The translations under genes were made by a program, and so were the position numbers. Positions 19,520 to 63,040 of a DNA stretch of 64,000 nucleotides are shown in pieces. Origin of the DNA: Bacillota bacterium (GTDB lineage: Bacteria > Bacillota > Clostridia > Christensenellales > UMGS416); contig JAEZSE010000001.1 in assembly GCA_023421955.1 (NCBI GenBank), positions 13,110 to 77,109 of the forward strand. Reading direction: 5' to 3'. A model generated the notes under the pieces. It was not told where the DNA came from and did no database searches. It saw only the letters and a program-made list of their open reading frames with translations. Within the stretch, counting starts at the first letter, position 1. Each line of letters opens with the position of its first letter.

Positions 19520-19546
19520 GTAGGGGCGGGGTTCCAACCCCGCCCC
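19520..19546. repeat. REP-like hairpin (GTAG head plus GGGGCGGGG/CCCCGCCCC) between convergent genes
   Basis: GTAG-GGGCGGGG-ttccaa-CCCCGCCCC. May also act as a bidirectional terminator, though it has no T-run. Confidence 0.6.
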
Positions 19547-19641
19547 GTATTTGACTGGATAGATTGTGGGTTTATTTATAGATCCAGATGTCCTAGCGGG
19601 CATATGCATACGCCCCTGCATTACCCACTCAAGTTGATTTC

Positions 19642-20784
19642 TTATAGCTGATGGATTACGTCAGAGAAGTTCAACGCCCCGGAAACCTTAATTTGCTCCC
19701 CAACAGCCTTCTTGAGCTTCATTCCCGCCTTTGTGTCCCCTACCAACACCGCGCCGACCAACATGCTGTCCCGAATCATCAGGCAGCCATAACCAGCATC
19801 TGTTTCTTCACCGAGTGAAGCAATTCCGTCACCCTCCGTGATGTCACCCACTGAAAGTACATTGAGCGCTCCCACCTTCAGCATTGGCGAGGGTGGGGTT
19901 TCTACATAGGTTATATTGCCACCTGCAGCGTTCGCCCCCGCAACCTTGCCCTGCTCTTGTGCCACAGTCATCAGGCACCAATTGCGGCCATTGAATTCAG
20001 CTGCATCACCACAAGCATAAATGCCCGGTATGTTGGTGCGCATGTGTTCGTCCACCAGGATGGACCGGCCCGCTGTGATTGCAGTGCCGAGCACCAGCGA
20101 CAGATCAGCCCGCACACCGGCGCACAGCACCACGCAGGCGCCTTCATACACACCGGGGCAGGTTTGGGGGTCCTGGCCGGTCATGATTTCCATGCCCGAT
20201 TCCTCCAGCCTGCGCTGCAGGTATCGGCCCGCTGCCTGGTTCAGTTGCCTGGGCATGAGCCACGGCGCAAGCTCTATCACGGCAGTCTTCACCCCAGCCG
20301 TGTTGAGCTCCCAGGCCGTTTCCAACCCCAGCAGGCCGCCGCCCACCACGATAGCCCTGCCGACCGCCAGGGCTGCGCTGCGCAAGCGCACAGCGTCGTC
20401 AAAATTGCGCAGTGTGATGGGTGGCACTTTGCAGGGTAGGTTCGGTCGGTTGGGCAGGGCTCCTGTGGCCAGCACAAGGCTATCCCACATCAGCACTGTG
20501 CCATCGGTGAAACGCGCGGTCTTCCGCTCCGCATCGAGTTGTTCTGCTGTGATGCCAGTCAGCAATGTGACACCCCGACTGGAGAACCACTCCGGTTTGC
20601 GAATTGCTAGGGCTGCTGCTTCTGTTGGCTCGGAAAGGCAGTGGGTGAGCCGGGGCCGCCAGTAGGGTGCGTATGGCTCTGCGCCGCACAGCGTTACACT
20701 GGCGCCTTGTGCCGCCGCGCTGTCCGCCGCTGCCAGCCCCGCTGGGCCAGCTCCGATGATGAGCACTTGATTCTTTGTATTCAT
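19642..20784 (-). CDS. FAD-dependent pyridine nucleotide-disulfide oxidoreductase (rubredoxin reductase / NADH oxidase-like)
   Basis: Two dinucleotide-binding motifs, VLIIGAGPAGLAAA and AIVVGGGLLGLE. About 380 aa. Confidence 0.75.
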   Translation of the reverse strand: MNTKNQVLIIGAGPAGLAAADSAAAQGASVTLCGAEPYAPYWRPRLTHCLSEPTEAAALAIRKPEWFSSRGVTLLTGITAEQLDAERKTARFTDGTVLMWDSLVLATGALPNRPNLPCKVPPITLRNFDDAVRLRSAALAVGRAIVVGGGLLGLETAWELNTAGVKTAVIELAPWLMPRQLNQAAGRYLQRRLEESGMEIMTGQDPQTCPGVYEGACVVLCAGVRADLSLVLGTAITAGRSILVDEHMRTNIPGIYACGDAAEFNGRNWCLMTVAQEQGKVAGANAAGGNITYVETPPSPMLKVGALNVLSVGDITEGDGIASLGEETDAGYGCLMIRDSMLVGAVLVGDTKAGMKLKKAVGEQIKVSGALNFSDVIHQL

Positions 20785-20929
20785 GGTATCTTCCCAGTCT
20801 TGTATTGACGCTTATTATACACAATTTACCATTTCCTCGAAATACATATTGCGGAATAAGCTTGTGTAGCACGGTGATTATGATCAAACTCCCCTGTCTG
20901 GACATAAGATGCCTGGAGGGGTGGTTTGA

Positions 20930-21619
20930 TTGAAGCCGGTCGATGTGCATTCAAGGGCAGTTGAGGAAAAGTTGGAGTATCAGGGCGTTACGATGGTGAA
21001 TGTGGATATTTCTTATCCGGAGATCCGGGGAGAGATCTCAAAGCTCTGCGAGAGGCGGTTCAATGAGCATTATGCAAGGGAGGCTCAAACCCAGCGAAGG
21101 CATGCTCGCGGGGAGTTGTACGGTAGTGCGGTGGAAGATTTCAAATTCAAACAGGAGAAGGGATACCCATTCAACCCATACGAGTTGATGCAGGCATATT
21201 CTGTAACATTCAACTCCCAGCCGGTTCTCAGCTTGTATTATGATGTGTATCAATACACAGGCGGAGCTCACGGCATGACCGAGCGCACCGGTGACACCTG
21301 GGACCTGCAGCGCTGCCGGATGGTGGCTATGGGCGACTTGTTCCGCCGGGGCTATGATTACACAGTTCCAATCTTCAAATACATAAGCGTTGAGGCGGCC
21401 CGCAGGCAGAGCGGCGAGGCTTCCTACTTTGATGGGTTGGAGCAAAATATCCGGAAGTATTTCGATGAGAAGAACTATTTCCTCTCCTGCCAGGGGCTTA
21501 ACGTGTTTTATCCGCTCTATTCCATCGCGCCTTATTATGTGGGGATACAGGTGTTCACCGTGCCTTATGGCATGTTTGGAAATAATCTGGTAGTTCCGCT
21601 GGTAGCGCTTTGCAAATAG
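20930..21619 (+). CDS. DUF3298/DUF4163-like protein (RsiV/PdaC C-terminal type)
   Basis: YYDVYQYTGGAHGMTERTGDTWDL and FYPLYSIAPYYVGIQVF are characteristic of DUF3298. Confidence 0.65.
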   Translation: MKPVDVHSRAVEEKLEYQGVTMVNVDISYPEIRGEISKLCERRFNEHYAREAQTQRRHARGELYGSAVEDFKFKQEKGYPFNPYELMQAYSVTFNSQPVLSLYYDVYQYTGGAHGMTERTGDTWDLQRCRMVAMGDLFRRGYDYTVPIFKYISVEAARRQSGEASYFDGLEQNIRKYFDEKNYFLSCQGLNVFYPLYSIAPYYVGIQVFTVPYGMFGNNLVVPLVALCK

Positions 21620-21692
21620 AATCCCGGCTCTATGCATTGCCAAACGCTCATGCAGGGCGTATCCTTATCGGTATCTTCTATTTGGAGCTTCC

Positions 21693-25559: not shown

Positions 25560-26267
25560 TTAGCGCCCCTCCGACGAATCACCCACAAAGGGCACGGCGT
25601 TCAATATGTTGGGGTCGGTTACGTTCACATAAGACTCTGGCACCTGCCCAACAATAATGCATTCGGTCACGAGCACCTTTGTGCTCACATCAACTTGCTG
25701 GCTCTGCATGGGGATCACGATCCTCACTGTGGTGTGGACATTCAGATAGATCTTATGGCGTGTCTGGTTGATTCCTTGATTCTGGAACTCAGACTCAAAA
25801 TCGGTTGTGACAGACCCCACCGGGATGATGCGGGCATAGATATTTGGTCCTCTGCCAGCCAGCAGCTGCCCGCCTAGCACGGTGCCCAGCGGGATGCCCA
25901 CGCCAGCCTCCCCGATCTTGGTAATGTTCCCCTGCGTGGTCATGGCAGTCGTCATTGCGATGTCATTCATTTTCATCGTGTCTGCCTGGATCAGCATCAC
26001 ATTGCCGTCTTTGTCTTGTACAATGCGGATGAGATCGGTGTATTTTACTGGATTGGACATCACCGAACGAACCGAGTCGTTCATGGCCTGCACAGCCATG
26101 GAACGCACGCGGGCTTCGGCCATTGTGATGATGACCGGTGCGATGTTGTTGTCCACATAGACAAACAGGAAGATTCCAATTAGCATCAAGATAATGGCCG
26201 TGGTGGCCAATCGGACTAAAAACGGCCTGGATGGCCGGAAACGTGGCTTGCTCCAGCGGAAACTCAT
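25560..26267 (-). CDS. yunB: Sporulation protein YunB
   Basis: N-terminal TM. IPLGTVLGGQLLAGRGPNIYARIIPVGSV ... IVIPMQSQQVDVSTKVLVTECIIVGQVP matches the YunB family. Start set at the Met preceded by GAGGGGGAG. Confidence 0.8.
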   Translation of the reverse strand: MSFRWSKPRFRPSRPFLVRLATTAIILMLIGIFLFVYVDNNIAPVIITMAEARVRSMAVQAMNDSVRSVMSNPVKYTDLIRIVQDKDGNVMLIQADTMKMNDIAMTTAMTTQGNITKIGEAGVGIPLGTVLGGQLLAGRGPNIYARIIPVGSVTTDFESEFQNQGINQTRHKIYLNVHTTVRIVIPMQSQQVDVSTKVLVTECIIVGQVPESYVNVTDPNILNAVPFVGDSSEGR

Positions 26268-26550
26268 GATACTCCCCCTCTGATATTCTATGAGGGGGAA
26301 CTTCATGATATTTGGATTTCTTCGTTGAGGGGAGAAGTGTCATCTCTCAATGACAAATCTATGGGCACAGAAATGTGCTCAGGCAGCTGAACGATGTTTA
26401 TTTCAATCGCACGAACGGGGGGCATCAGTACTTGTTTGCCGAGCATGATGTGGAGGTTCAGCTGCGGTATGGGGATGTTTTGCCGCAAGGGACAGTGTCA
26501 TTTGAGTGACTTGCGAACCATGATGAAGGGCTGCTGGTCGCATTCTAGTG

Positions 26551-27864
26551 CTAGCTTTCAATTTCATCAAGTGACAGTTTCATGAAATAGTTACAATAAT
26601 CAACAAACAACCAAACATACCCAGATTCAACATCTATGGATATGTGTTGTCCGTCATTATGAAATGAATCGAGAGACCAGAGCCTTTCAAGCTTATGAGA
26701 ATCGCAGTCAAAGGAGTACAACTCTAGTTGCACCTCGATGGGCCACCTGTCTCCATTTGCTTCCTCCCATTTTAGTGGATTTTGTAATAAGAGATACCAT
26801 TTTTCATCTGTATTATGAATTGATAACCAGCTATCTTGTAAGAATGGAAATGGTTGTTTATGTATAGTCTCATCATTTTCAATACTATAATAACAAATAT
26901 CAGTCACATTGAGGTATTGAAACTCATTGCCAACAAGCTTCATGTTGACATAGCCACTAAATTGGGGTTCTGGAAATTCGGAGGTAAGTCTGCCGTTGGC
27001 TATACTATACGCATAAAGAGAGCCCTCATTAATACTATAAACATATAGATATCTTGTGTCATTTGCCTCCGAGTATTCTTTAAATGGTGGAGATATTTTT
27101 CCTTTATGTAAATCGTATAAGTAGCTTGTCTCAGGATCTCCCATATAATTGATTAAAGCAAAGGGCTTTTCTTGATATCCTGTAGCCCGCGATAATTGTC
27201 CGTTATTTGGAATATTCACTTTATCAAACTTCCCTTGATTCAACTCATACTTCATAACAAACGTAAATTCTTGATCTTTGATATAATATGTATATTTGTA
27301 GAAAACATAATTCTCATCAACGTAGATGATATCAGTTATTTCGCTTGTTATTTTCTCTGGTTTACCATTTGAATACTTAAATAGAGTGGGGTCTGAGTAC
27401 TCATATTCCTTATTTTGACTGCGCCCCAAATAGTACAGACATCCAGCTTTATCAAGAAACATTTGATCAATGATGGCTAATTTTGTGTTGAACAATTTTC
27501 TGCTTTCACCGGTTATCTTGTCCATTTGATAAATACACTTATTGTTGATGGCCTTACTGCCATCCATTTGATAATACACATAATCATCATCAGCAACAGT
27601 GTATTCTGATATCTTTTGCCCTTGACATGGCTCACTACTTAAAAAATCGCTCAAAGGATCTACGTTTACCGTAGGTGTAGGACATATTGTGGGTGAATTT
27701 ATTCTCGGAGAGGCTGTATGTTGGGTTGAGGGTTGAAGCGTCATAAGCGTTGATGTGGTTGGCAATGGTGAAGATGATGGTCTCAACTTCGTTTGGGCAT
27801 CACAACCAATGACAAAAATCTGTAATACCAAAAGTATTGATGTGATAGCTTTCTTCATGTTCAT
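26551..27864 (-). CDS. Lipoprotein with DUF5050-like beta-propeller repeats (AT-rich island)
   Basis: Lipobox VIGC. Recurrent aromatic-rich blades (YVYYQMDG, CLYYLGR, YVFYKY). Strongly AT-rich relative to the flanks. Confidence 0.6.
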   Translation of the reverse strand: MNMKKAITSILLVLQIFVIGCDAQTKLRPSSSPLPTTSTLMTLQPSTQHTASPRINSPTICPTPTVNVDPLSDFLSSEPCQGQKISEYTVADDDYVYYQMDGSKAINNKCIYQMDKITGESRKLFNTKLAIIDQMFLDKAGCLYYLGRSQNKEYEYSDPTLFKYSNGKPEKITSEITDIIYVDENYVFYKYTYYIKDQEFTFVMKYELNQGKFDKVNIPNNGQLSRATGYQEKPFALINYMGDPETSYLYDLHKGKISPPFKEYSEANDTRYLYVYSINEGSLYAYSIANGRLTSEFPEPQFSGYVNMKLVGNEFQYLNVTDICYYSIENDETIHKQPFPFLQDSWLSIHNTDEKWYLLLQNPLKWEEANGDRWPIEVQLELYSFDCDSHKLERLWSLDSFHNDGQHISIDVESGYVWLFVDYCNYFMKLSLDEIES

Positions 27865-28075
27865 ACTCCAAGTGCCAGTTGTTTCATATCATCTTTCCAT
27901 AATAACTCTATAATCCTTCAAGTGTAGAAAGTGATAGTCTTCTGTTCATTTTAGTTCATGGTCAACAAAATGTCCAACACATATGTCAATCTCACACAGA
28001 TATTTGCATTCCCCTCCATTTTCCTGTATCATTAATCAGTTAAACTCTATCTCCCTTTTGAAAGGAAGAAACCGC

Positions 28076-29878
28076 ATGCCCCGCAGGCAGGACTATATTA
28101 GGAACTTTTGCATCATCGCCCACATCGACCACGGTAAGTCCACGCTGGCCGACCGCCTGTTGGAACTCACCGGCGTGGTGGCCCAGCGCGACCTGGAGGA
28201 GCAGATGCTCGACACGATGGACCTGGAGCGTGAGCGTGGCATCACGATCAAGGCCCAGGCCGTGCGCATGCCCTATGTGGCGCTGGACGGGCAGGAATAT
28301 GAACTGAACCTGATCGACACCCCTGGACACGTGGACTTCAGCTATGAGGTGAGCCGGTCGCTGGCAGCCTGCGAGGGCGCGATCCTTGTGGTGGATGCCA
28401 CGCAAGGCATCGAGGCGCAGACGCTGGCCAACGTGTATCTGGCGCTGGACCACAACCTGGAGATCATCCCGGTGATCAACAAGATCGACCTGCCCAGCGC
28501 CGATGTGGAGGCTGTGCGCAAGGAGATTGAAGACATCATCGGCCTGGATGCAAAGGATGCCCCGGCGGTCTCCGCCAAGGAGGGCATCAACATCCGCGCC
28601 ATCCTGGAGCAGGTGGTCAAGCTGGTGCCGCCGCCCAAGGGCAGTGAGGATGACACGCTGCGGGCATTGATCTTTGACTCGTATTATGACAACTACAAAG
28701 GTGCCATCAGTTTCGTTCGCATCGTGGAGGGCAGCGTGGTGCCCGGCGACCGCATCCGCATGATGGCGACCGGTTCGGAGTTTGAGGTCACTGAGGTGGG
28801 CATGTTCCGACCCCGCCTCACACCTACCGGCGGCCTCTATGCCGGCGAGGTGGGCTATATCTGCGCCAGCATCAAGAACGTGGCCGAAACCCGCGTGGGC
28901 GACACGATCACCAACGCGTCCTCTCCGGCTTCCGAGCCCCTGCCAGGCTATAAGGAAGCCATCCCGATGGTGTTTTGCGGCATCTATCCGGCCGACGGCG
29001 CCCATTATGAGGATGTGCGCGACGCGCTGGAGAAGCTGAAACTCAATGACGCCGCGTTTCAGTTTGAGCCTGAGACGTCGGTGGCGCTGGGCTTTGGGTT
29101 CCGCTGCGGCTTTTTGGGCCTTCTGCACATGGAGATCATCCAGCAGCGCCTGGAGCGGGAGTTTGACCTGGACCTGGTCACTACCGCCCCCAACGTGGTC
29201 TACAAGGTGGTGCTCAACGACGGCACGGTGCTGATGATCGACAACCCCAGCAAGCTGCCCAATCCCACCGACATCGAGCACATGGAGGAACCGATGACCT
29301 CGGCCCACATCATCACGCCGGTGGAGTATGTAGGCGCCATCATGGGCCTGTGCCAGGACAAGCGGGGCATCTTCGGCGAGATGAAGTATCTGGAAGCCAC
29401 CCGCGTGCAGTTGAGTTACAAGCTGCCGCTCAACGAGATCATCTACGACTTCTTTGACGCGTTGAAGTCCCGCACGAAGGGTTATGCTTCTTTCGATTAT
29501 GAGGTGACCGGCTATGAGCCCAGCGAGCTTGTGAAGCTGGACATCCTGCTGAACGCCGAGATCTGCGACGCGCTGTCGCTGATCACCCACAAGGAAAAGG
29601 CCTATGCCCGTGGCCGGGCGATGTGCGAGAAGCTGAAGGAAGCGATCCCGAGGCAGATGTTTGAGATCCCGATCCAGGCGGCCATCGGTGGCAAGATCAT
29701 CGCCCGCGAGACGGTGAGCGCCTTCCGCAAAGACGTGTTGGCCAAATGTTACGGCGGCGACATCACCCGCAAGAAGAAGCTGTTGGAAAAACAGAAGGAA
29801 GGAAAGAAGCGCATGCGCCAGGTGGGCAGCGTGCAGGTGCCCAGCGAGGCGTTTATGTCGGTTCTGAAGCTGGATTGA
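28076..29878 (+). CDS. lepA: Elongation factor 4
   Basis: [34 protein letters not shown]. Start set at MPRRQDY after AAAGGAAG. Confidence 0.95.
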
Positions 29879-31152
29879 TGGCAGGACTCTATATCCACAT
29901 CCCCTTTTGCGTGAGAAAATGCGCCTACTGCGACTTCCCCTCCGTGGCTGGAAGGGAAGAGGACGCGGGGCGCTTTTTTGCTGCGGTGGTGAGGGAGGCG
30001 GAGCTTTGGTGGGATGATTGCGTCGGTGGAGGGATTGGGCGGGTACCGAGCCCCGCCCGTACATCGACAGCATGTTCAATCGATTCCCTACCCTCCCTTA
30101 ATAAGGGGGGATGCCGCCTCAGCGGCAGGGGGGATTTCACTGGGATGTCACCAACAGTGACAGGGGGAGTCCATAAGAGAGTTTTCTCCACCGTCTTCCT
30201 TGGCGGCGGCACTCCCTCCCTCCTTCCAGCTGGCGATCTGGAGCGGCTCATGGACAGCCTGCGCTTGGTGCTGGACATCTGCCCCATTGAGTTCACCGTG
30301 GAGGTAAACCCCGGCACCGTAGACAAGGCGAAGCTCGAATCCTTTCGCCGCATGGGGGCCAACCGCATTTCCTTTGGCGTGCAGGCGGCGCAAGACGGCC
30401 TGCTCAAGCGCATCGGGCGCATCCACACATGGGCTGACTTTGTTCGATCTTTCGAGCTGGCCCGTGAGGCCGGATTCACCAACATCAATGCCGACATGAT
30501 GACCGGCCTGCCCGGCCAGACCGTGACTGACGCGGTGGATACTGCCCGCAGGCTGGTTGCGCTGGGAGTGGAGCATGTGTCCTGTTATGGGCTCATCCTG
30601 GAGGAAGGCACACCGATGTTTGCTGCTGTGGAATCCGGCGCGCTCACCGTGCCTGATGGTGATCTGGAGCGGGAGATGTTCCACGAGGCGAAGCAGGTTC
30701 TTGAAGCGGTGGGGATCAAGCGCTACGAGATTTCCAACTTCGCAAAGCCAGGCATGGAGTGCCTGCACAACCTCACTTACTGGCGAAATGAGGATTGGCT
30801 GGGGTTAGGCCCCGGCGCCGCGTCACACTTTGACGGCGTCCGCTGGGAAAACTACCCCGATCTGGATAGCTATATGCTAGCGTTGGAGCAGGGCGCGTTG
30901 CCCCCTGCTGACACCCATGAGATTGGCGGCAAGGAGACGGCTTTTGAATCAGTGATGCTGGGCTTGCGGCTGGTGGAAGGCATCGACTTGAAGCGCTTTG
31001 CAGCCCGCCATGGGTTCTCGTTCCTGGAGCGGTTTGGTGCGGTTATGGATAAACAGGTTGAATTGGGCCTGATGCAGAAAACCCCGCGCGCAGTCAGTCT
31101 GACCGAGCGGGGGATGGATTTGCAGAACTCTGTATTGATGGAGTTCATGTAG
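29878..31152 (+). CDS. hemW: Radical SAM heme chaperone HemW (HemN-like) carrying a ~55-aa in-frame insertion
   Basis: LYIHIPFCVRKCAYCDF, FLGGGTPSLL, HNLTYW. TGATG overlap with the lepA stop. Confidence 0.85.
   Translation: MAGLYIHIPFCVRKCAYCDFPSVAGREEDAGRFFAAVVREAELWWDDCVGGGIGRVPSPARTSTACSIDSLPSLNKGGCRLSGRGDFTGMSPTVTGGVHKRVFSTVFLGGGTPSLLPAGDLERLMDSLRLVLDICPIEFTVEVNPGTVDKAKLESFRRMGANRISFGVQAAQDGLLKRIGRIHTWADFVRSFELAREAGFTNINADMMTGLPGQTVTDAVDTARRLVALGVEHVSCYGLILEEGTPMFAAVESGALTVPDGDLEREMFHEAKQVLEAVGIKRYEISNFAKPGMECLHNLTYWRNEDWLGLGPGAASHFDGVRWENYPDLDSYMLALEQGALPPADTHEIGGKETAFESVMLGLRLVEGIDLKRFAARHGFSFLERFGAVMDKQVELGLMQKTPRAVSLTERGMDLQNSVLMEFM
30014..30180 (+). repeat. GC-rich modular palindromic element inserted in frame within hemW
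   Basis: Contains a REP-like hairpin (30037..30058) followed by TACATCGAC, box CCCTCCCTTAATAAGGGGGGATG..CAGGGGGGATTTC (30091..30138), and GGGATGTCACcaacaGTGACAGGGGGAGT (30142..30170). All three recur at other loci. Confidence 0.8.
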
Positions 31153-31214
31153 CATTTTATCATGTATTTGTCTATAATTCTTATCAGACTATAAAGCAAT
31201 GATGAGGTGTTGAA

Positions 31215-31646
31215 ATGAGTATATTTGATCATCTCCAAAGATCAAAATCTAGGCAGTTGAATGACAAATACATTCTGGATGTGTTGAAAGCAAAATGCGG
31301 TAATTGTGTAACTGAACAGGTCTTTTCAATACGGATTGAGAGAAAGTGGCTTGCAAGGTACTATATACCGATACTTCCGAACACGAGATATTTCTATCTT
31401 ATATGCAATGATTGTCAGTGTCAAACCGAGATTTCCAAGAATGTTGTTAAGAGGTTAAAGAAATTCAAGCAGTGTACAACACTGCTGCTGGAACACAAGA
31501 TATCAGACGAGGAATACCATGCTGCATTGATTCAACATGGCGTTTTTCCTGATGAGTTCATCCCAAACAATGATTGGGAGTGCCCGAAGTGCAAAAGAGC
31601 AAATAGCGGCATCACATATCGTTGTAAATGCGGATATGGTGTTTAG
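31215..31646 (+). CDS. Hypothetical Cys-rich protein with C-terminal RanBP2-like zinc finger (AT-rich islet)
   Basis: CGNC...CNDCQC...WECPKCKRANSGITYRCKCG. Confidence 0.5.
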   Translation: MSIFDHLQRSKSRQLNDKYILDVLKAKCGNCVTEQVFSIRIERKWLARYYIPILPNTRYFYLICNDCQCQTEISKNVVKRLKKFKQCTTLLLEHKISDEEYHAALIQHGVFPDEFIPNNDWECPKCKRANSGITYRCKCGYGV

Positions 31647-31675
31647 TTTGAGGCCTTAGCAGTTTGGATCTTTCT

Positions 31676-31894
31676 TTACGGTGTGCAAACCGTCAGATCC
31701 CTGTATTGCGCAAGAGGGCATGCCCCCAGTGTTGCTGCTGGCTCTACGATGTCGCCGATTGGCTGCAACGCCTGTATGGAATCCGTTGTTGCGGTGTTTG
31801 ACCCAGCAATGGGTTCCGCTGCTGTTTCCTTTGGCAAGCCGCAGGCAGTAAATAGCACTGAAATCGTAAAGAACAGAATCATCATTTTTTTCAT
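31676..31894 (-). CDS. Small hypothetical lipoprotein
   Basis: MKKMMILFFTISVLFTAC lipobox. GGGAGG RBS. Start set at the internal Met of track ORF 31676..31942. Confidence 0.5.
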   Translation of the reverse strand: MKKMMILFFTISVLFTACGLPKETAAEPIAGSNTATTDSIQALQPIGDIVEPAATLGACPLAQYRDLTVCTP

Positions 31895-31986
31895 GGGGTT
31901 TACCTCCCGATACAGATTGATCTTACCATCTGCTTGGCACATACATCGTGATCATTTACACATTAACCGGGGGCACAATCCTTCTA

Positions 31987-32679: not shown

Positions 32680-32805
32680 GAGGTGCTCCTCCTCAATGCT
32701 GGATTGAGTCAACTATAGTATAGGCAGAATCAGATCGAATGAATGTGATAATGCGCACAACAAATCCGAGAGATTGGCACCACCGGAAGATGACGGACAA
32801 TGCAC

Positions 32806-33070
32806 GGGCGGACTCTGTACCGGCCCGAGACTGTAAGCAACGCAGGCAAGCAAGGCCGAAAACCACATCTTGACATTCTGTGTGCAGGCTGATTGCCTGA
32901 TCGAGCCCGCCGAATGCATAAAAGGGCGCAGGGCGAAGCCCTGTATACACCCCCCTCCCCCATAAGGAGTGCGATAGTGGCCAATAGTCTGATGGGGGAG
33001 GGGTAGAGGTGGGGGGTCACAGGATAATAGAAAGGGGTCGGTACAGAGCCCGACCCCTACCATAGACATC
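32806..33070. repeat. Cluster of repeat-family modules in a 390-bp non-coding gap
   Basis: Degenerate REP-like copy at 32806..32826 in inverted orientation. 11-bp long-range stem CCCCTCCCCCA (32952..32962) with TGGGGGAGGGG (32993..33003). Intact REP-like hairpin GGGGTCGG-tacagagc-CCGACCCC plus CTAC at 33034..33060. Confidence 0.7.
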
Positions 33071-36677: not shown

Positions 36678-38006
36678 TCATGATGCAGGATGACCGGCCA
36701 TGAATTGGTCGAACCGATCCAGCACATAGTCCAGCATATGCGAGGTTAAGCCGGGGTAGACGCCAATGAAGAAGGCGTTGTGCAGCACCTTTTCAGTGTT
36801 ATGAAGGGGCCCGGCGATGCGGCAGTGGATCGTGCGGTAAGCCGGGTGCTTTAGGATGTTGCCGGCGAAGACCATACGGGTCTCGATGTTGCCCTCCTCC
36901 AACCATTGCACCAGCTCTGACCGGGTGAAGCCTGCGCCTTCCCGCACCATCAGCGGCAGCGCAAACCAGGATGGGTCAGCTCCCGGCAGCGCGGTGGGCA
37001 GCTGCAGGCGGTTGGCATAGGGGGTCAATCCTTCGGCCAATCGAGCGAAGTTCGCCTTGCGCTTTGCGGTGAAATCCGGCAGCTTTTTGAGCTGCTCGAC
37101 GCCCATCGCGCACTGGATGTCCAAGGGCTTTAAGTTGTAACCAATGCTGCTGGTGACATACTTGTGATCATAGCCCTCAGGCAGTCCTACAAACTTGTGA
37201 CTGAACCGGCAGCCGCAGGCACCTTGAGGGTTTTCCTCACCGGTGCGGCACCAGCAGGCCCGGCCCCAGTCCCGCAGTGAAAGAGCCTGGCGGTAAAGAA
37301 CTGTGTTGTTGGTCACCACCGCACCACCCTCTCCCATCGTGATGTGGTGGGCGGCATAAAAGCTCATTGTAGCCATGTCGCCGAAACTGCCGCAGAGCCG
37401 GCCCTGATAGCGGGAATCCAGCGCGTCACAGGTGTCCTCGATGACATAAAGCCCATGGGCCTGGGCAAAGCCCATGATCATATCCATCTGGGCTGGGTTG
37501 CCCAGCGTGTGGGCCACCAGAATGGCGCGGGTGCGTTCCGAGAGTGCCCGGTTCAACAACCCTGCATCCAGGTTATAGGTGCCATCCTCCAAATCTACAA
37601 ACACCGGCACCAGGCCATTTTGCAGCACCGGGTTCAAGGTGGTGGGGAAGGCCAGCGCCGCTGTGATCACCTCGTCGCCGGGCTTCAGCGGGTCTGGCAA
37701 ATTGGGGGAGCACAGGGCACTCACAGCCAGTAGGTTGGCTGACGAGCCGGAGTTCACAATGAGGGCGTGCTTCATGCCCATATACTGCCTCAAGCATTCG
37801 GCAAAGGCGTCGCCATACGGGCCCAGCGTCAGGCGGAAGTCCAGCACACTGTCCACCATGGCCTGCATCTCCCGCTCGTCATACACTCGCCCGGCATAGT
37901 GCACGCGGCTTTTGCCCGGTACATAGGTTTCTTCCTCGCGACGGAGGGCGTAGAGTTGTTGAACCCGGTTGAGGATTTCAGCCCGTAACTGTGTTTCGGT
38001 TGGCAT
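36678..38006 (-). CDS. rfbH: CDP-4-keto-6-deoxy-D-glucose 3-dehydrase (E1; RfbH/DdhC type)
   Basis: YAGRVYDEREMQAMVDSVLDFRLTLGPYG..LIVNSGSSANLLA. His replaces the Schiff-base Lys (SFYAAHHITMGEGG). Cys cluster CWCRTGEENPQGACGC. Start set at MPTETQ after AGGAGG. Confidence 0.8.
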   Translation of the reverse strand: MPTETQLRAEILNRVQQLYALRREEETYVPGKSRVHYAGRVYDEREMQAMVDSVLDFRLTLGPYGDAFAECLRQYMGMKHALIVNSGSSANLLAVSALCSPNLPDPLKPGDEVITAALAFPTTLNPVLQNGLVPVFVDLEDGTYNLDAGLLNRALSERTRAILVAHTLGNPAQMDMIMGFAQAHGLYVIEDTCDALDSRYQGRLCGSFGDMATMSFYAAHHITMGEGGAVVTNNTVLYRQALSLRDWGRACWCRTGEENPQGACGCRFSHKFVGLPEGYDHKYVTSSIGYNLKPLDIQCAMGVEQLKKLPDFTAKRKANFARLAEGLTPYANRLQLPTALPGADPSWFALPLMVREGAGFTRSELVQWLEEGNIETRMVFAGNILKHPAYRTIHCRIAGPLHNTEKVLHNAFFIGVYPGLTSHMLDYVLDRFDQFMAGHPAS

Positions 38007-38019
38007 GATGGTGCCTCCT

Positions 38020-38150
38020 GATTTTGGTAGGAGCGGGGCTCTGTACCCGCCCCATCTACTTGCCATTGACTCCTAACTTGCCGCCTGCGGGCGGGAAATC
38101 CCCCCTGACCTCTGCGGAGGTCATCCCCCCTTCATAAGGGAGGGTTTGGA
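38020..38150. repeat. Repeat-family element in the intercistronic gap of the sugar operon
   Basis: GTAG-GAGCGGGG-ctctgtac-CCGCCCC (38027..38054). The reverse complement of 38095..38144 aligns with 30091..30138, with compensatory changes in the central hairpin. Confidence 0.8.
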
Positions 38151-38151
38151 G

Positions 38152-39252
38152 TCACAGCAACTCCACCAGCTTCTCGCACACAAACCCCACGTCTTCATCG
38201 GTCATGTTGGCCGCCGAAGGCAGAGAGATGCCTTGTCGCTCCACCATGGCGGCCACGGGGTTGGCGAAGCGCTGCTCCAACGTTGGGAAGCGGCTCATGC
38301 GGGGGAATGCGGGGCGGGCGTGAATGTTGCAGGATCGTAGGCCGGCCAGGATGGCATCTCGTTGCTGAATGGTATGGCTTGGCAGCAGTATTGATGGATA
38401 GCAATAATTGCTTCGGCAGCCTTCCCGTTCCCGGATGAGCCATATGGCGTCCACATCCTTAAGCCGCCGCTCATATCCGGCAAACAGCGCCCGCTTTTTT
38501 TCCATCAGCTCGTCGGCCCGCTCCAGTTGGGCAAGGGCCAATGACGCGTGCAGGTTGCCCATCGTGTATTGATAGCCGATTTCATCGGACCAGAATACAG
38601 CCTGGCTGTCTGTTCGGCCCATGTTGGAGAGCAGCTTTGCCCGCTCATAAAGGTCATCACTGTCGGTCAGGAAGATACCGCCCTCGCCGCAAACGGCCAT
38701 CTTGGCGCCCTGGAAGCTGAAGCAGGCGATGTCGCCGAAGCTGCCCACCGGTTTGCCTTGATAGGTGGCTCCCAGTGCCGGGGCAGCGTCCTCAATCACA
38801 GCAAGCCCATGCTCACGGGCGATGGACAGGATCGTATCCATATCCGCCGGGTGGCCGAAGGTGTGCACCAGCATGATGGCGCGGGTTTTCGGCGTGATGG
38901 CCTGCCGGATGGCTTCGGGGTCAATGGTCCAGGTGTCCGGCTCGATATCCACCAACACGCAGGTGGCACCGGTGTAGGCGATGGCATAGGCCGTGGCTAC
39001 CCAACTGAAGTCGGTCACGATCACCTCATCACCGGGCCCCAGGCCTAGTGAGGCCACCGCCAGGTGCAGCGCCACAGTGCAGCAATGGGTGGCGATGGCG
39101 TGCTTCACACCGATGCGTTCCGCAAAAGCTTTCTCCAGCCGTTTCACGTAGTTGTCATAGTTCTCATACCAACCGTTCTTCACGGCATCCAGCACATAGC
39201 CCACCTCGTGGTCGGTGATGTCAGGGCCGGCAAAGCTGATCTTGTGATCCAT
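38152..39252 (-). CDS. DegT/DnrJ/EryC1/StrS-family sugar aminotransferase
   Basis: FSFQGAKMAVCGEGG with the catalytic Lys retained. 366 aa. Confidence 0.85.
   Translation of the reverse strand: MDHKISFAGPDITDHEVGYVLDAVKNGWYENYDNYVKRLEKAFAERIGVKHAIATHCCTVALHLAVASLGLGPGDEVIVTDFSWVATAYAIAYTGATCVLVDIEPDTWTIDPEAIRQAITPKTRAIMLVHTFGHPADMDTILSIAREHGLAVIEDAAPALGATYQGKPVGSFGDIACFSFQGAKMAVCGEGGIFLTDSDDLYERAKLLSNMGRTDSQAVFWSDEIGYQYTMGNLHASLALAQLERADELMEKKRALFAGYERRLKDVDAIWLIREREGCRSNYCYPSILLPSHTIQQRDAILAGLRSCNIHARPAFPRMSRFPTLEQRFANPVAAMVERQGISLPSAANMTDEDVGFVCEKLVELL

Positions 39253-43819: not shown

Positions 43820-43838
<19 letters not shown>
42744..43838 (-). CDS. rfbG: CDP-glucose 4,6-dehydratase
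   Basis: VLVTGHTGFKGSWLALWL, YSASKGCAE. About 360 aa. The start could alternatively be 43823. Confidence 0.9.
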
Positions 43839-44590
<752 letters not shown>

Positions 44591-44661
44591 GCTTTGCCTC
44601 CCCGGTTGGTCTGGCCCTGCGGCTTCTTCATGATATGCCGGGGCAGGTGCTGTTGTTCGCT

Positions 44662-44697
44662 CCATCTGCCCCTGATCTGGCTGTGGCAGGCAGATGG
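44662..44697 (-). promoter_or_regulatory. Intercistronic stem-loop (9-bp stem) between the GT2-MT gene and rfbF
   Basis: CCATCTGCC (44662..44670) pairs with GGCAGATGG (44689..44697). Confidence 0.45.
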
Positions 44698-44735
44698 ATA
44701 TCGTTTGATCCAGATTGCGGATCTCCCGAGGGATA

Positions 44736-45983
44736 TCAGCTGCTTGCTGATTTTATAAAGCTCAGATAATAATGGTTGGCCTGTTTTCCAAACCTGGCCC
44801 CCAGGCCATAGAGCACTCCCATTGTTTCAAACAGGATGCCATCGTCCGCCGCTGTGCAGGCCAGCTGGCCGCCGGGGTTCAGCATGCCATACAACATATG
44901 GTAGAAGGCAGGGCGGTCTGAGATCAGCCGCGTGTCGGTCTCCAGTACAATGAAGTCAAACGACTGGCCGGCAAATTGCACAGCTGCATCCTCCGGCGCT
45001 CCTACTTCGCAGCGGTCGCAGATTGTTTTGAGATCGGCCATCTTACCGCGATCCGATGCCAGATAGGAAAGCGTCGCTTGTTTGCAGCCGAAGTACCGGC
45101 AGTTGTTCTTTACATGCAGCGCCGTGGAGCCATAGGATGAGCCGATTCCCAGAATGCTTGCGCTCTGCCCACCATCATAGGTGAGAGTATCCACCATCGT
45201 GCAGTCGATCAGGCCGGCCAAATAAGGGTCCGCGTTGAACTTCGACATGAACAGCCGCAGATTTCGGATTTGCAGGGTTTTGTCCTTTTCATATTCCGCG
45301 TTAAAGGATCGGGCCCCATAATGATGAACGAACGTGTCGCGGGCAAGAATGACCTTGTAGCCCATCCTTCGGATGGAAAAACAGATGGCGTCGTCATCAT
45401 AACAGCCGGGGTTGAAGTCCTCATCGAAGCCGCCTAGCGTTTGCATGATCTCATTGCGGTAAATGCCCAGGTAAGTGGATAGCTTCAGCCGCTCCTCCCA
45501 TTTGCCGGGGTCGCTCACATTGTGGCGTTCGGCATACCGCTGGATAGCCTCCATAGTGGTGCAGCCGATGTTGATTTGCTGGTAGTTGCAGGAGGCGTTG
45601 CACACCGGCACGGCCATGCCCACCCTTGGGTCTGTCTCCAGGATGGCTACCAGGTTGTCCAACCAACGGGCGGTCACCACGATATCGTTGCTCACGTTCA
45701 GCACGTATTTGCCGCGAGCCGCACGGATGCCATGGTTGATCGCCTTATCCACGCCGATATTTTGCGCAAAGCTGATATGCCGGGCTGCGGGCACGCTTTC
45801 CAGATATTCCTTTGTGCCGTCGGTAGAGCCGTTATCCACGGTGATCAGCTCATAATCCAGGTGCGCGGTGTGGCGAAGTATGCTCTCCACGCACTGGCGT
45901 GTGTAGTCCAGATGGTTATACGCCAGCACCACGATGCTGGTCAGCGGCTGCGTTCCACTTTCAGAAACAGAATCATTGTGCAT
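44736..45983 (-). CDS. Family-2 glycosyltransferase fused to a Rossmann methyltransferase-like C-terminal domain (paralogue B)
   Basis: SIVVLAYNHLDYTRQCVESIL..YELITVDNGSTDGT, C-terminal ILGIGSSYGST...FDFIVLE. Collinear with paralogue A along its whole length. Confidence 0.75.
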   Translation of the reverse strand: MHNDSVSESGTQPLTSIVVLAYNHLDYTRQCVESILRHTAHLDYELITVDNGSTDGTKEYLESVPAARHISFAQNIGVDKAINHGIRAARGKYVLNVSNDIVVTARWLDNLVAILETDPRVGMAVPVCNASCNYQQINIGCTTMEAIQRYAERHNVSDPGKWEERLKLSTYLGIYRNEIMQTLGGFDEDFNPGCYDDDAICFSIRRMGYKVILARDTFVHHYGARSFNAEYEKDKTLQIRNLRLFMSKFNADPYLAGLIDCTMVDTLTYDGGQSASILGIGSSYGSTALHVKNNCRYFGCKQATLSYLASDRGKMADLKTICDRCEVGAPEDAAVQFAGQSFDFIVLETDTRLISDRPAFYHMLYGMLNPGGQLACTAADDGILFETMGVLYGLGARFGKQANHYYLSFIKSASS

Positions 45984-46042
45984 GAAAGCCCCTTCCTCTC
46001 TGCCAGCAGTCTATTCCAGGCAACAGAATGTTTGACAATGAA

Positions 46043-46070
46043 ATGGCGGCTGACAAATGTCAACCGCCAT
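46043..46070 (-). terminator. Strong stem-loop just downstream of the collagen-like gene (possible attenuator or mRNA stabiliser)
   Basis: ATGGCGGcTGACAaaTGTCAaCCGCCAT, about 12 bp paired. On the minus strand it is followed by TTCATT, which is only a weak T-tract. Confidence 0.5.
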
Positions 46071-46089
46071 GGCGCGAGCCTTGCGCGTA

Positions 46090-48156
<2,067 letters not shown>

Positions 48157-61246: not shown

Positions 61247-62111
61247 TATTCTGAAAAAGAGGATGAGGGCTGGCATGCCGGTGCCCACGCCGATGTTTGC
61301 GGGCAGGGTTCGCCAGACGCTGGACAGGCTGCCGGAAAGAAAGAGGTTTTCACTGTTCCGTTATCTGCCTGCTGCGGCGATGACCGTGGTGGCTGTGGCG
61401 GTGATCGGGCTGGCGGTGATGAGCCGGATGGATCCTGGCGGCATGGGCAATTGGTTTCAGGCGCTGGCAGGTGGGGAAGCAACGGCGACAGTTGATGTGA
61501 CGCCGATCCCCACCCCGGAGGGGACCGTTGAGGAGACCGCGCTTGAAACGCTGATCCCCACAGAAACACCGATGGGAACTGTGGAAGTCGTTGATACGCC
61601 GGTGACCACCCCAGAGCTCACGCTTGCTCAGGCGACGCAAGAATCCAGAAGCGGCAACAAGGACTTCTTAAAGATCGGCAATGATTTGCTCAAGGCGGAC
61701 GGGTTGGGCTCTTTGAAATTGGGAATGACCACTAGCGAACTGATCGCCTATCTTGGCAAACCTGAATCAGAAACTGAGCCCCTGGTATGGGGGTCTGACG
61801 GCAGTGCGCATTACACCGCCAATTACCCATCACTTGGGCTGACCATTGGTTTGGTGGAAGAAGATCACTCCGGAACCAGATATGTGGTATGTTCGATCCA
61901 AGCGGTAGCGCCATGCGGTCTGGCCACCCGGAGGGGATTGGTAAGGATCGGTGACACGAAGGATGCGGTGATCACTGCTTATGCCGATTCCATCAGTGAT
62001 GAGGATACAGGCTCCGAAAGCATCGTTGCTGGGTCCGTATATGGGGGCATCCTTTTTGGCTTGAAAGATGGTATTGTAGAATCCATTTTTATCGGAGCCG
62101 CAGCCGAATAA
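61233..62111 (+). CDS. Putative anti-sigma factor (single-pass membrane protein)
   Basis: 14-nt overlap with the sigma gene. One TM (AAAMTVVAVAVIGLAVM), a Thr/Pro-rich linker and an extracytoplasmic domain. Confidence 0.55.
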   Translation: MTRDDILKKRMRAGMPVPTPMFAGRVRQTLDRLPERKRFSLFRYLPAAAMTVVAVAVIGLAVMSRMDPGGMGNWFQALAGGEATATVDVTPIPTPEGTVEETALETLIPTETPMGTVEVVDTPVTTPELTLAQATQESRSGNKDFLKIGNDLLKADGLGSLKLGMTTSELIAYLGKPESETEPLVWGSDGSAHYTANYPSLGLTIGLVEEDHSGTRYVVCSIQAVAPCGLATRRGLVRIGDTKDAVITAYADSISDEDTGSESIVAGSVYGGILFGLKDGIVESIFIGAAAE

Positions 62112-62271
62112 CCGAAGGTAGTGTTCCAAGTAACAAGGGCCGCGATCATTCGCGGCCCCTTCAGCTATCCTCCCGGCGGTATCGCTCAACATGATCGAGC
62201 CACACTTGTCCCCCTCCTCTGAGGGGGATGTCACAAAGTGACAGGGGGAGTATGGTGACCAAGCGGTAGGA
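62112..62271. repeat. Repeat-family module cluster between convergent genes
   Basis: Hairpin GGGCCGCGA-tcat-TCGCGGCCC (62137..62158), box GCTATCCTCCCGGC, CCCCCTC-ctct-GAGGGGG, and GGGATGTCACaaaGTGACAGGGGGAGT (62225..62251), which is nearly identical to 30142..30170. Confidence 0.75.
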
Positions 62272-62817
62272 TCAAACTTCACTGTCAGACAGGATCGAGA
62301 ATATCTGGTGATCCTGCCACTGCCCATTGATCTTCACACCCTTGCGCTCAATGCCTTCCTTTTCAAAGCCCGCCTTCTCCAGCACCCGCATGGAGCCAAC
62401 ATTGACCGGCATGGCCCCTGCCTCCACCCGGTGCAGCTTCAGCTCCTCAAAGGCATAGCGCACCGCAAGCTTCAACGCTTCCGTGGTGTAGCCATGGCCG
62501 TTGTGACGCTGATCCAACGAGTAGCCCACCATGCATTTCTGCAAGGGGCCCCGCATGATGTGAAACAGGTTTACGTCTCCGATCAGTTCTCCGGTCTCAG
62601 TGAGGAATATGCCGAAGAAATAGTCGCGTCCCTCCGCCCGTCGTTGTTCGACATCATTGAGCATGCTGCGTACCGAATCAATCGTGTAGTAGTCACTATC
62701 ATGGGCGGGTGAAAATTTCTGGAAGAAGTCCGCGTTGCGCAGGCGCAATGAATGCAGGGCATCGGCGTCTGCCGGCTCCAGAAAGCGGAGGTAAACTCGT
62801 TCTCCGGTAAGCTTCAT
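62272..62817 (-). CDS. GNAT-family N-acetyltransferase (RimJ/RimL-like)
   Basis: LRFLEPADADAL, GYSLDQRHNGHGYTTEALKLAVRYAFEEL. Confidence 0.8.
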   Translation of the reverse strand: MKLTGERVYLRFLEPADADALHSLRLRNADFFQKFSPAHDSDYYTIDSVRSMLNDVEQRRAEGRDYFFGIFLTETGELIGDVNLFHIMRGPLQKCMVGYSLDQRHNGHGYTTEALKLAVRYAFEELKLHRVEAGAMPVNVGSMRVLEKAGFEKEGIERKGVKINGQWQDHQIFSILSDSEV

Positions 62818-62869
62818 GAATGAACTCCAAATATTTGATGAGCATCATATTACGGGAAAGCTGGATGCA

Positions 62870-63040
62870 GCGCAAGTGTCCTTCACTGGGCGGCTCATGA
62901 GCCGCCCGCGTAGTTCAAGTAAGAAAAGTGGTGTGGTAAGGAGATCGGCCTGGTTTGGTTTGGCCAGACAGCCCGCAAATATGAGGAAGGGGCCGGTACA
63001 GAGCCCGGCCCCTACATCGACCGCCATATACTGGCACATC
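62870..63040. repeat. Repeat-family module cluster
   Basis: TTCACTGGG followed by the 20-nt perfect palindrome GGGCGGCTCATGAGCCGCCC (62888..62907). REP-like GGGGCCGG-tacagagc-CCGGCCCC with CTAC and ATCGAC...ATCGAT (62989..63040). Confidence 0.75.

Follow-up and report, generated by a model that had tools for sequence, protein, structure and literature searches.

The small GC-rich hairpins of the 64-kb window (the whole stretch of DNA analysed here) are probably GTAG-tagged REP elements, bacterial repeats of an ordinary REP type. GGGNNGG-TACNGAGC-CCNNCCC-(C/G)TAC is present in four copies, at 30037 (+), 33035 (+), 38027 (−) and 62990 (+), the same four that an independent repeat search recovers; searching with GGGNNGGTACNGAGCCCNNCCCNTAC at up to two mismatches gives four matches in the window versus none in 100 dinucleotide shuffles. 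Our covariance model, R1, scores these copies at 40–46 bits and adds two more, at 19520 (a second loop type) and 32802 (decayed), giving five or six REPs per 64 kb; its significant matches number five in the window and nine in ~137 kb of relatives' DNA. The unit is 26–27 nt long, formed by a GTAG head that directly abuts the stem foot, a GC-rich stem of 7–8 bp and an 8-nt loop that is conserved and reads GCTCNGTA on the strand with GTAG. All hairpin sequences reported in the first-pass annotation are confirmed at their positions, as is the REP-like anatomy that it proposed.

A constant loop above a covarying stem, also described there, is borne out. Window stem pairs change between TC/GA, CC/GG and CG/CG, and across 32 distinct sequences 93.8% of stem cells are paired, with 18 double-sided changes against 6.4 in shuffled controls (0 of 500 shuffles reach 18). 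Pairing collapses when the stem register is slid, and does not extend to the position immediately flanking the stem (36%). Compensatory stem changes maintain the hairpin, while loop and head, whose sequence is much better conserved than that of the stem, stay fixed. Nor is the motif confined to the window, a possibility that the first-pass annotation had allowed for: it occurs in >120 metagenome stretches, with several copies per contig and two to three on each of several Ga0315282 contigs. A scan that left the base before TAC free yielded 126 non-redundant copies, on contigs of 26% to 66% GC; that base is C in 113 of them (90% CTAC, which is GTAG on the other strand), and stem covariation with fixed loop and head recurs in this set. 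Among 185,579 species representatives the strict window motif was found in one relative only.

Copies, single or paired as inverted dimers, mostly follow genes closely on the 3′ side and point either way. The REP at 33034..33060 (+; GGGGTCGG-TACAGAGC-CCGACCCC-TAC, GTAG first on the − strand; R1 44.8 bits) follows the aconitase stop (33104) at a distance of 44 nt, with TTTCTATTAT next on the mRNA strand; its single-stranded DNA fold is −10.5 kcal/mol (z −4.3), and orthologous copies occupy L087 12068–12094 and L089 12269–12295. That at 62989..63015 (+; GGGGCCGG-TACAGAGC-CCGGCCCC-TAC; 46.4 bits, fold z −3.9) lies 54 nt downstream of a SIMPL-family gene (stop 63069, − strand), with orthologous copies at L215 10846–10872 and L216 10876–10902; unrelated metagenome contigs such as L101 and L134 carry REPs identical to its 26-mer. 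The REP at 38027..38053 (−; 43.5 bits), between two DegT-family aminotransferase genes (Pfam; 38152–39252 and ~36678–38008, both − strand), indeed points the other way, with GTAG leading on the + strand, and its stem carries one A·C mismatch. The relatedness claimed for 19520..19546 (+; GTAG-GGGCGGGG-TTCCAA-CCCCGCCCC; 23.8 bits, E 1e-3; single-stranded DNA fold −14.2 kcal/mol, z −4.0) stands, but with a different loop, TTCCAA, that recurs in relatives (L090 7214–7240 and 8290–8316, L214 7653–7679); this copy lies in the spacer of a convergent rsgA-like gene (ends 19501) and NAD(FAD) oxidoreductase gene (ends 19642). The degenerate copy noted at 32806 maps to 32802..32827 (−; GCAC-GGGCGGA-CTCTGTA-CCGGCCC; 13.4 bits, E 0.3), and its L089 ortholog has decayed less (29.4 bits), which marks the window copy as a genuine REP in decay. 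The ATCGAT tail, said to follow several copies, follows only two, at 30060..30084 (+; TACATCGAC-N10-ATCGAT) and 63013..63043 (+; TACATCGAC-N16-ATCGAT).

The positions of these copies raise the alternative that they are host transcription terminators or mRNA 3′-end stabilisers, alike through common function and not as mobile DNA. Three or four of the five intergenic copies lie 20–130 nt from a gene 3′ end, the 33034 copy fits the terminator consensus, and the aconitase and SIMPL REPs, conserved in three genomes, have T-rich sequence next on the mRNA strand. We nevertheless regard this reading as unlikely. Only 33034..33060, one of the five window REPs, passes a terminator scan, and a T-rich tail is present in only 6 of the 126 metagenome copies and lacking in the other 120; the REPs are therefore not plain terminators in general, and neither the constant coincidence with terminators nor the missing head that the first-pass annotation had considered is seen. 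Common function would leave unexplained an identical 8-nt loop and GTAG head across unrelated spacers in genomes of 26% to 66% GC, and copies face either way with respect to the upstream gene, with one inside coding sequence. The ordinary T-tailed terminators elsewhere in the window genome, moreover, differ in stem and carry proper T runs. As GTAG-tagged REPs, the aconitase and SIMPL copies have probably become 3′-end hairpins after insertion (acting in termination or mRNA stabilisation), because they are GTAG-first in the mRNA with T-rich sequence after, and no other part of their spacers is as well conserved.

Boxes B and C, which often adjoin the REPs, are separate lineage-specific hairpin modules: the shared boxes reported earlier are real and vary in order, but they are not parts of one modular element. 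Box B at 30091..30140 (+) comprises CCCTCCCTTAATAAGGGGGGATG, a variable hairpin CCGCCTCAGCGG and then CAGGGGGGATTTCAC; an inverted second copy at 38093..38144 (−; 84% over 32 nt) has a different inner hairpin (ACCTCCGCAGAGGT), and a further copy lies downstream of aconitase in L089 (12324–12375) and is absent there in the window and L087. Complete box C (62205..62251, +; CTTG-TCCCCCTC-ctct-GAGGGGGA-TGTCAC-aaa-GTGACA-GGGGGAGT) sits in the spacer of convergent genes ending at 62111 and 62272, and alignment finds it at the orthologous site of L216 and not of L215. Copies in L087, L090 and L213 show the compensatory change GTCAC/GTGAC to GTCGC/GCGAC, and the 3′ part alone (GGGATGTCACCAACAGTGACAGGGGGAGT; 30142..30170, +), inside hemW, is orthologous to L087 10218–10248, whose hairpin also carries a compensatory change. 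TTCACTGGG occurs three times and GGAGGATAGC twice in the window.

That the hairpins instead delimit a larger non-autonomous element (a MITE, or a long REPIN-like element with inverted REPs at its limits), with boxes B and C as its interior and single hairpins as remnants, is improbable. The inverted pair 32802..32827 and 33034..33060 (GTAG ends outside, ~205 nt apart) does bound a ~270-nt stretch that alignment places in the window and L089 and not in L087, and REPIN-type doublets occur in metagenomes, with a 21-nt spacer in the L101 type. Most REPs, however, stand alone and lack boxes (19520, 62989, L087 12068), some boxes have no REP (62205; hemW of L087 and L213), and module order and orientation vary site by site. 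Neither box is present in any of 120 REP-carrying metagenome loci of other organisms, and no target-site duplication is recognisable. BOX elements of Streptococcus pneumoniae are likewise modular short repeats in varying numbers in the intergenic DNA of a Bacillota genome; they keep a fixed A-B(n)-C order, in contrast to the varying order and orientation here, and the window REP module stands alone in many other organisms. No sequence similarity between BOX and the window repeats was found, and Rfam, the RNA-family library, has no match in the window.

Conservation itself might suggest that loop and head are the site of a host DNA- or RNA-binding protein, kept by selection with no transposase involved (as gyrase, IHF and Pol I bind REPs in E. 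coli), and both the constancy of loop and head far beyond the stem and the standing of REPs as conservation islands in diverged spacers would suit this. We consider it most improbable as an explanation: no candidate protein is known, near-identical copies at new sites such as hemW would go unexplained, and such a role would be compatible with a RAYT transposase origin and not an alternative to it.

The GTAG REPs of E. coli, Pseudomonas and Stenotrophomonas (Di Nocera, De Gregorio & Rocco 2013, PMC3733652) are likewise 26–27 nt long with GTAG at the foot of a 7–8 bp GC-rich stem. Like the window REPs, they form sub-families via complementary stem changes, have occasional degenerate heads (GTAC, GTGG), occur as singletons and as inverted dimers with GTAG ends outside or inside, and lie mainly downstream of ORFs, with some inside genes. 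The window family differs in its host, an uncultured spore-forming Bacillota lineage whose phylum is not among the GTAG hosts of that survey, and in its 8-nt loop, strongly conserved across very different genomes. This loop is longer than the 2–5 nt of the RNAMotif REP rule of Quentin 2018 (PMC6006769); Di Nocera 2013 included GTAG families with loops of 9–15 nt. REPINs (Bertels & Rainey 2011, PMC3116915) consist of two inverted REPs with a short spacer, as do the L101-type doublets and the L090 hemW pair (7157–7183 with 7214–7240), and share with REPs of the window lineage a long persistence at orthologous sites. The window REPs, in contrast, are nearly all singletons, their sole pair having the long spacer given above, and whereas REPIN–RAYT systems have been described as specific to lineages and passed on vertically, the window 26-mer is nearly unchanged across genomes of 26–66% GC.

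Comparison among related genomes shows that REP copies are gained, lost and rearranged and that some persist at orthologous sites. The aconitase and SIMPL REPs are kept at the same sites in three genomes with diverged flanks; the intergenic REPs examined at orthologous sites are conserved and not polymorphic, a point against the GTAG-REP explanation.

As first reported, the window holds no transposase: Pfam on 40 ORFs, phmmer with E. coli RayT and an HUH-Y motif scan are all empty. RAYT (PF01797), whose members partner GTAG REPs (Nunvar 2010, PMC2817692; Messing 2012, PMC3479197; Corneloup 2021, PMC8266576), was not found in the window or in ~137 kb of relatives, a weak negative because RAYTs are single-copy and these ~200 kb of the lineage cover only a few percent of each genome. 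A metagenome organism carrying the same REP has a Pfam Y1_Tnp gene (E 1e-8) and a second HUH-Y ORF, the latter with another GTAG REP on both flanks; the one Y1 gene found near this exact window-type REP (L103) is without visible flanking copies of it. We infer that RAYT mobilises REPs in this lineage. The REP hairpin would form in single-stranded DNA (Nunvar 2010, Messing 2012, Ton-Hoang 2012, Corneloup 2021), where a single-copy HUH/Y1 RAYT (TnpA-REP) encoded elsewhere in the genome would recognise it via head and stem-loop, then cleave and copy it. Boxes B and C accumulate at the same permissive sites as the REPs.

One such site is hemW (29878..31152, +; Pfam Radical_SAM and HemN_C), which encodes a radical-SAM heme chaperone and whose ATG overlaps the lepA stop. 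Window HemW has 424 residues versus the usual 370–378 (homolog lengths, alignment), with an in-frame, stop-free insert at residues 49–99 (30022..30174, +) formed by a REP, an ATCGAC..ATCGAT tail, box B and part of box C. The REP (30036..30062, +; GGGCGGG-TACCGAGC-CCCGCCC-GTAC; 40.2 bits) has the head variant GTAC and is translated in the ORF as GIGRVPSPART. That the 30037–30170 cluster lies inside the hemW ORF had been missed in the first-pass annotation. Rickettsia palindromic elements (Ogata et al. 2000, cited in PMC3733652) and intragenic REPs (Di Nocera 2013) are similarly in-frame palindromes in still-functional genes, where they add a stretch of peptide at a surface position that tolerates it; the Rickettsia elements differ in being 100–150 bp and without a GTAG head, and the hemW insert in being a patchwork of REP and other short hairpin modules whose content differs between close relatives at one site. 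AlphaFold places residues 49–99, at pLDDT <50 and without secondary structure, between helix 27–49 and strand 102–109 of an otherwise confident model; the REP is read through and translated within this disordered surface loop, which tolerates insertions. The nearer relatives L087 and L089 lack the hemW REP that the window shares with L090 and P0005. Relatives have inserts of about +5 to +81 residues and varying content at the same site, and in at least eight related HemW proteins these consist of different REPs or hairpins.

The window repeat is a genuine GTAG-type REP family, assigned to that class by its anatomy, with no cognate RAYT (the Y1/HUH REP-associated transposase) seen in ~200 kb of its lineage. 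Searching with the pattern GGGNNGGTACNGAGCCCNNCCCNTAC at up to two mismatches returned four window matches (30037–30062, 33035–33060 and 62990–63015 on the + strand; 38027–38052 on the − strand) and none in 100 dinucleotide-preserving shuffles. Independent repeat detection recovered the same four copies, and the hairpin sequences quoted in the first-pass annotation were all found in place. Our covariance model of the hairpin (R1, built on 32 distinct family members) scores these four at 40–46 bits and also finds 19520–19546 (23.8 bits, E ~1e-3), with head and stem unchanged around a TTCCAA loop. The element at 32802–32827, earlier described as a degenerate copy at 32806–32826, reaches only 13.4 bits; its orthologue in the related locus L089 scores 29.4 bits and is so much better preserved that the window element must be a real, eroding copy. 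Single-stranded DNA folding of intact copies gives the expected hairpin (−9 to −14 kcal/mol), formed by a GC-rich stem of 7–8 bp (a palindromic stem-loop of this class being 20–40 bp, with a fully paired, GC-rich basal stem of at least 6–7 bp) and an 8-nt loop, TACNGAGC, or a second loop type of 4–6 nt; the 38027 copy contains one A·C stem mismatch. Four window copies have the head GTAG and one has GTAC, with GCAC at the decayed element; members of the class have GTAG (or GTGG, GYAG) within 0–2 nt 5′ of the foot of the hairpin.

The family is mainly extragenic, with five of the six window copies intergenic and the remaining one inside hemW; GTAG-type REPs favour sites 3′ of ORFs in unidirectional or convergent gene pairs. 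Four copies lie 19–99 nt past a stop codon: 19520 (19 nt 3′ of an rsgA-like gene, in a convergent gene pair), 33034 (44 nt past the aconitase stop), 38027 (in the spacer of two DegT-family genes) and 62989 (54 nt past a SIMPL-family gene). Singletons predominate; 32802 and 33034 form an inverted pair with GTAG ends outside, ~205 nt apart, and the related locus L090 has an inverted dimer with GTAG ends inside, 30 nt apart (7157–7183 and 7214–7240). Scaling up from this density of 5–6 copies per 64 kb would predict a few hundred copies at a genome size of ~3 Mb; GTAG-type REPs usually exceed 100 copies per genome. The TACATCGAC...ATCGAT tail, originally ascribed to several copies, does exist but follows only two. 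Beside one REP, a C run CCCCCCTCCCCC and a G-tract block GGGGGAGGGGTAGAGGTGGGGGG ~35 nt further on form a long-range hairpin (window 32950–33016), and the corresponding block in L089 (12233–12254) is GGGGGAGGGGTAGGGGTGGGGG, a perfect four-tract G-quadruplex motif.

Beyond the window, a strict scan with GGGGNNGGTACAGAGCCNNCCCC across 185,579 species-representative genomes gave six matches, only one of them in a relative (L083, from genome OH_CBB_53); the other five lack the head and are about the number expected by chance. Scanning metagenomes with a pattern in which two bases of the left arm, four of the right arm, one in the loop and the one preceding TAC were unconstrained matched more than 120 stretches, and the motif is thus not restricted to this window. 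Among the matches listed, 126 non-redundant copies lie outside the lineage (132 including the window and relatives; 39 distinct cores); the commonest form among the metagenome matches listed is GGGCGGGTACGGAGCCCCGCCCCTAC, with a second subtype, GGGCCGG...CCGGCCC, dominant in another metagenome. The window 62990 copy is letter-identical to copies on unrelated metagenome contigs, and the contigs that bear the repeat span 26–66% GC. In one sample, several long contigs have two or three copies apiece, and doublets in inverted orientation, spaced by 21 nt, are seen repeatedly (L101, L129, L136, L153 and others). A loose 15-base motif run against viral contigs gave 80 matches, all attributable to chance in coding DNA and only one with a complementary stem. 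Full-text literature searching with the repeat sequence brought up eukaryotic promoter papers only, all unrelated, and the sequence is absent from those supplements of Di Nocera 2013 that were examined; the window itself has no Rfam match at the gathering threshold, and no tRNA was found in it. Metagenome genomes with the TACGGAGC type also contain other GTAG REP families, among them GGGCGTATGCAATACGCCCCTAC, GGGCGCGGCAAGCAGCGCCCCTAC and GGGCGACGCATGCGTCGCCCCTAC (L093 1335–1357; L139 1959–1981; L181 1960–1985 and 2640–2760; L096, L138 and L167), all with a GTAG-GGGC...GCCC frame.

Covariation analysis bears out the original claim that the stem covaries around a constant loop. Across 32 distinct sequences, standard pairs occupy 93.8% of stem cells, and double-sided changes occur in 18 cells versus 6.4 under shuffling, with none of 500 shuffles reaching 18. 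Both pairs whose two sides were unconstrained in the scan display C:G/G:C and C:G/U:A exchanges. Sliding the 3′ partner by one column lowers pairing to 66–70%, and pairing stops at the stem, the position directly outside it being unpaired (36%). Of the 126 metagenome copies among the matches listed, 113 have C at the unconstrained base preceding TAC, which yields CTAC, the opposite strand of GTAG. Compensatory stem changes combined with a fixed loop and head indicate that the hairpin is selected as a structure and the loop and head as sequence, the pattern expected of a protein-recognised DNA or RNA hairpin.

To our knowledge, work on REPs and RAYT transposases has been almost confined to Proteobacteria. 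Point by point, the anatomy of the present repeat is like that of the GTAG superfamily of Di Nocera 2013, whose members have stems of 6–13 bp, keep GTAG in ~90% or more of cases (sometimes degenerate), split into sub-families by complementary stem changes, form dimers with GTAG ends outside or inside, and are located downstream of ORFs with some copies inside genes (PMC3733652). The 8-nt loop falls outside the 2–5 nt RNAMotif rule of Quentin 2018 (PMC6006769); this is one pipeline's rule rather than the family's, because Di Nocera 2013 accepts GTAG families with loops up to 9–15 nt (PMC3733652). The GTAG hosts surveyed were Proteobacteria, Cyanobacteria, Chloroflexi and the PVC superphylum, a list without Firmicutes (PMC3733652), and no mention of Firmicutes/Bacillota was found in the REP/RAYT literature searched. 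With our family the class reaches an uncultured lineage of spore-forming Bacillota, and basic understanding of REPs is left unchanged; two points should concern specialists, namely a 26-mer common to genomes of very different composition and a recurrent, probably translated, insertion site in HemW.

Could these hairpins simply be transcription terminators? Among window copies only 33034 passes an intrinsic-terminator consensus, a T-rich tail on either strand accompanies just 6 of the 126 metagenome copies among the matches listed, and ordinary T-tailed terminators with unrelated stems exist in the window (for example, 18252–18320); the copies do not, therefore, always coincide with Rho-independent terminators. 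Orthologous persistence nevertheless gives part of this idea some footing at two sites, where a copy is kept 3′ of aconitase in the window, L087 and L089 (alignment A2) and 3′ of the SIMPL gene in the window, L215 and L216 (alignment A5), all loci of related genomes. Both copies present GTAG first in the mRNA followed by T-rich sequence, and both are the best-conserved part of diverged spacers; heads drift (GTAC, GTGG) and loops drift, with stems kept. From these alignments we read the two as REPs that may serve the upstream gene in an acquired or original 3′-end role. Between the SIMPL stop and the orthologous REP, L216 has a (CAGTAGT)n 7-nt tandem repeat (10793–10850), of which the window retains a degenerate trace only.

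The shared boxes around some REPs are real but are not parts of one modular element, and of the proposed 'REP/BOX-like family' the GTAG-REP anatomy stands and the BOX-like composite does not. Box B consists of CCCTCCCTTAnnnAAGGGGGGATG, a variable hairpin and CAGGGGGGATTTC; box C of TCCCCCTC-loop-GAGGGGGA-TGTCRC-loop-GYGACA-GGGGGAG. Recurrence of both is limited to the window and its relatives, where they lie in both orientations and sometimes without a REP, and their inner hairpin also shows compensatory change (GTCAC/GTGAC versus GTCGC/GCGAC). Neither was found in 120 REP-bearing metagenome loci of other organisms among the matches listed. The modules are ordered and oriented differently at each site, and the box sites examined have no recurrent full-length unit, terminal repeats or target duplications, which leaves a single BOX- or MITE-like element unsupported; boxes B and C are separate from the REP. 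The G-run direct repeats of the box B inner hairpin were considered as a target-site duplication and rejected, since both G runs are present in L087, which lacks the hairpin.

One cluster, at 30036–30170, is not intergenic but inside hemW, a point overlooked at first pass. The gene starts at an ATG at 29878, overlapping the lepA stop, ends at 31152 and encodes a canonical N terminus; the stretch separating the first helix from the GGGTPS strand holds a REP with its ATCGAC..ATCGAT tail, box B and a portion of box C, all in frame with no stop codon and including the peptide segment GIGRVPSPARTSTACSIDSLPSLNK. Window HemW is consequently 424 aa against 370–378 aa for ordinary HemW. AlphaFold models residues 49–99 as a disordered loop (pLDDT <50) joining helix 27–49 to strand 102–109, with the remainder confident (pTM 0.77). 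Related HemW proteins have inserts of ~+5 to +81 residues at the same site with differing contents: L090 holds two REPs as an inverted dimer, together with partial copies in tandem; the protein P0005 has GRVRSPAPT, canonical GGGCGGGTACGGAGCCCCGCCCCTAC translated; L214 a TTCCA-type REP, then three 21-nt tandem repeats of the REP right arm; L087 boxes B and C and no REP; L213 box C in reverse orientation; and L089 another C-run/G-run hairpin. All eight related HemW inserts, that of L213 included, are in frame and free of stops. An excised or bypassed segment need not keep frame, so judging from these reading frames the inserts are most likely translated and tolerated. This also disposes of an intron, intein or translational bypass, and the inserts are far too short for either of the first two.

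In-frame palindromic repeats within genes have precedents in the Rickettsia RPEs and intragenic REPs (PMC3733652). At least eight related HemW show an essential-type gene accommodating in-frame repeat DNA in a single surface loop, and the set offers a natural series on protein tolerance of such inserts. Tandem part-duplicated REP arms occur in hemW of L090 (7090–7183, four partial repeats of the loop-side part GGGACGGAGC) and L214 (7680–7745, the 21-nt unit ACCATACCCGCCCGCAGCGCA three times, giving the peptide repeat PYPPAAQ), which suggests replication slippage at the hairpin. Repeat inserts can also mislead start-codon prediction: the public hemW call P0013 on L213 (10001–10996) starts past the insert and loses the radical-SAM CxxxCxxC, with the ORF intact from 9773.

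Presence and absence vary between relatives, which points to gain and loss. The hemW REP is found in the window, L090 and P0005 and is absent from L087 and L089, which are nearer relatives; L087 also lacks the ~270 nt enclosed by the 32802/33034 inverted pair; box B lies 3′ of aconitase in L089 only; and box C in the GNAT spacer is shared by the window and L216, not L215. As first proposed, no RAYT or other transposase lies in the window, as judged from Pfam scans of 40 ORFs, a phmmer search with the E. coli RayT protein and a scan for the HUH-Y motif. Phmmer with the same query against 4,655 ORFs of all loci likewise gave no match. RAYT genes are single-copy and typically flanked by REPs; the lack of a PF01797 gene in the window plus ~137 kb of relatives (~200 kb, well under 5% of any one genome) is therefore a weak negative. 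Support for a transposase is indirect and comes from an unrelated metagenome organism bearing this REP, the source of both Y1-like ORFs that the HUH-Y scan picked out across all loci. One, on L103, is a Pfam Y1_Tnp gene (E 1e-8) not flanked by this REP on the visible side; the other, on L181, has a different GTAG REP on both sides, the classic RAYT arrangement. Directly upstream of lepA in L213, a reverse-transcriptase gene absent from the window (6271–7824, − strand; RVT_1, 517 aa) could belong to a group II intron or a retron.

The current view, so far as we know, is that REPIN–RAYT pairs are strictly vertical and lineage-specific. The abundance of one 26-mer in genomes of very different base composition bears on purely vertical REP/RAYT inheritance. 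Across hosts of 26–66% GC, this Bacillota lineage included, the GTAG head and 8-nt loop are the same and the stem is nearly so. We advance as a tentative and rather doubtful proposal that REP/RAYT pairs moved horizontally across phyla, or that a recognition constraint froze the REP before the phyla diverged, with the corollary that the HemW α1–β2 loop would be a recurrent landing site whose independent inserts were then translated. Horizontal transfer between distant phyla, if true, would run against the strictly vertical view.

The window is chromosomal, ~56% GC and of spore-forming Bacillota type (yunB, rnpA–yidC–jag, lepA and hemW), and close relatives have SASP and flagellar genes. Its closest public relative is the MAG OH_CBB_53 (L083, identical in sequence to L089), which shares 97% identity in LepA and 94% in aconitase. 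An 11-kb sugar-modification block (~36700–48100) missing from otherwise syntenic L089 contains three DegT/aminotransferase genes, an NDP-sugar dehydratase, a nucleotidyl transferase, a 796-aa ORF and a collagen-like gene, along with REP 38027 and a box B copy, and looks like a variable surface-polysaccharide island. The collagen-like gene (46090–48135, − strand) is a 681-aa ORF whose long 9-bp periodic repeats encode Gly-X-Y triplets (Pfam Collagen, 3e-31). Between hemW and a molybdopterin oxidoreductase lies a low-GC stretch of ~830 nt (31153–31986; 33–40 nt in L087 and L089) with a Cys-rich 143-aa ORF lacking a Pfam match (31215–31646). GC falls to 0.40 within 26000–28000 around a 437-aa ORF (26551–27864, − strand), which, like its 417-aa counterpart in L089, has no Pfam match. 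The jag (KhpB), yidC and rnpA cluster occupies 13986–16322 on the − strand; in many Bacillota this cluster adjoins the replication origin.
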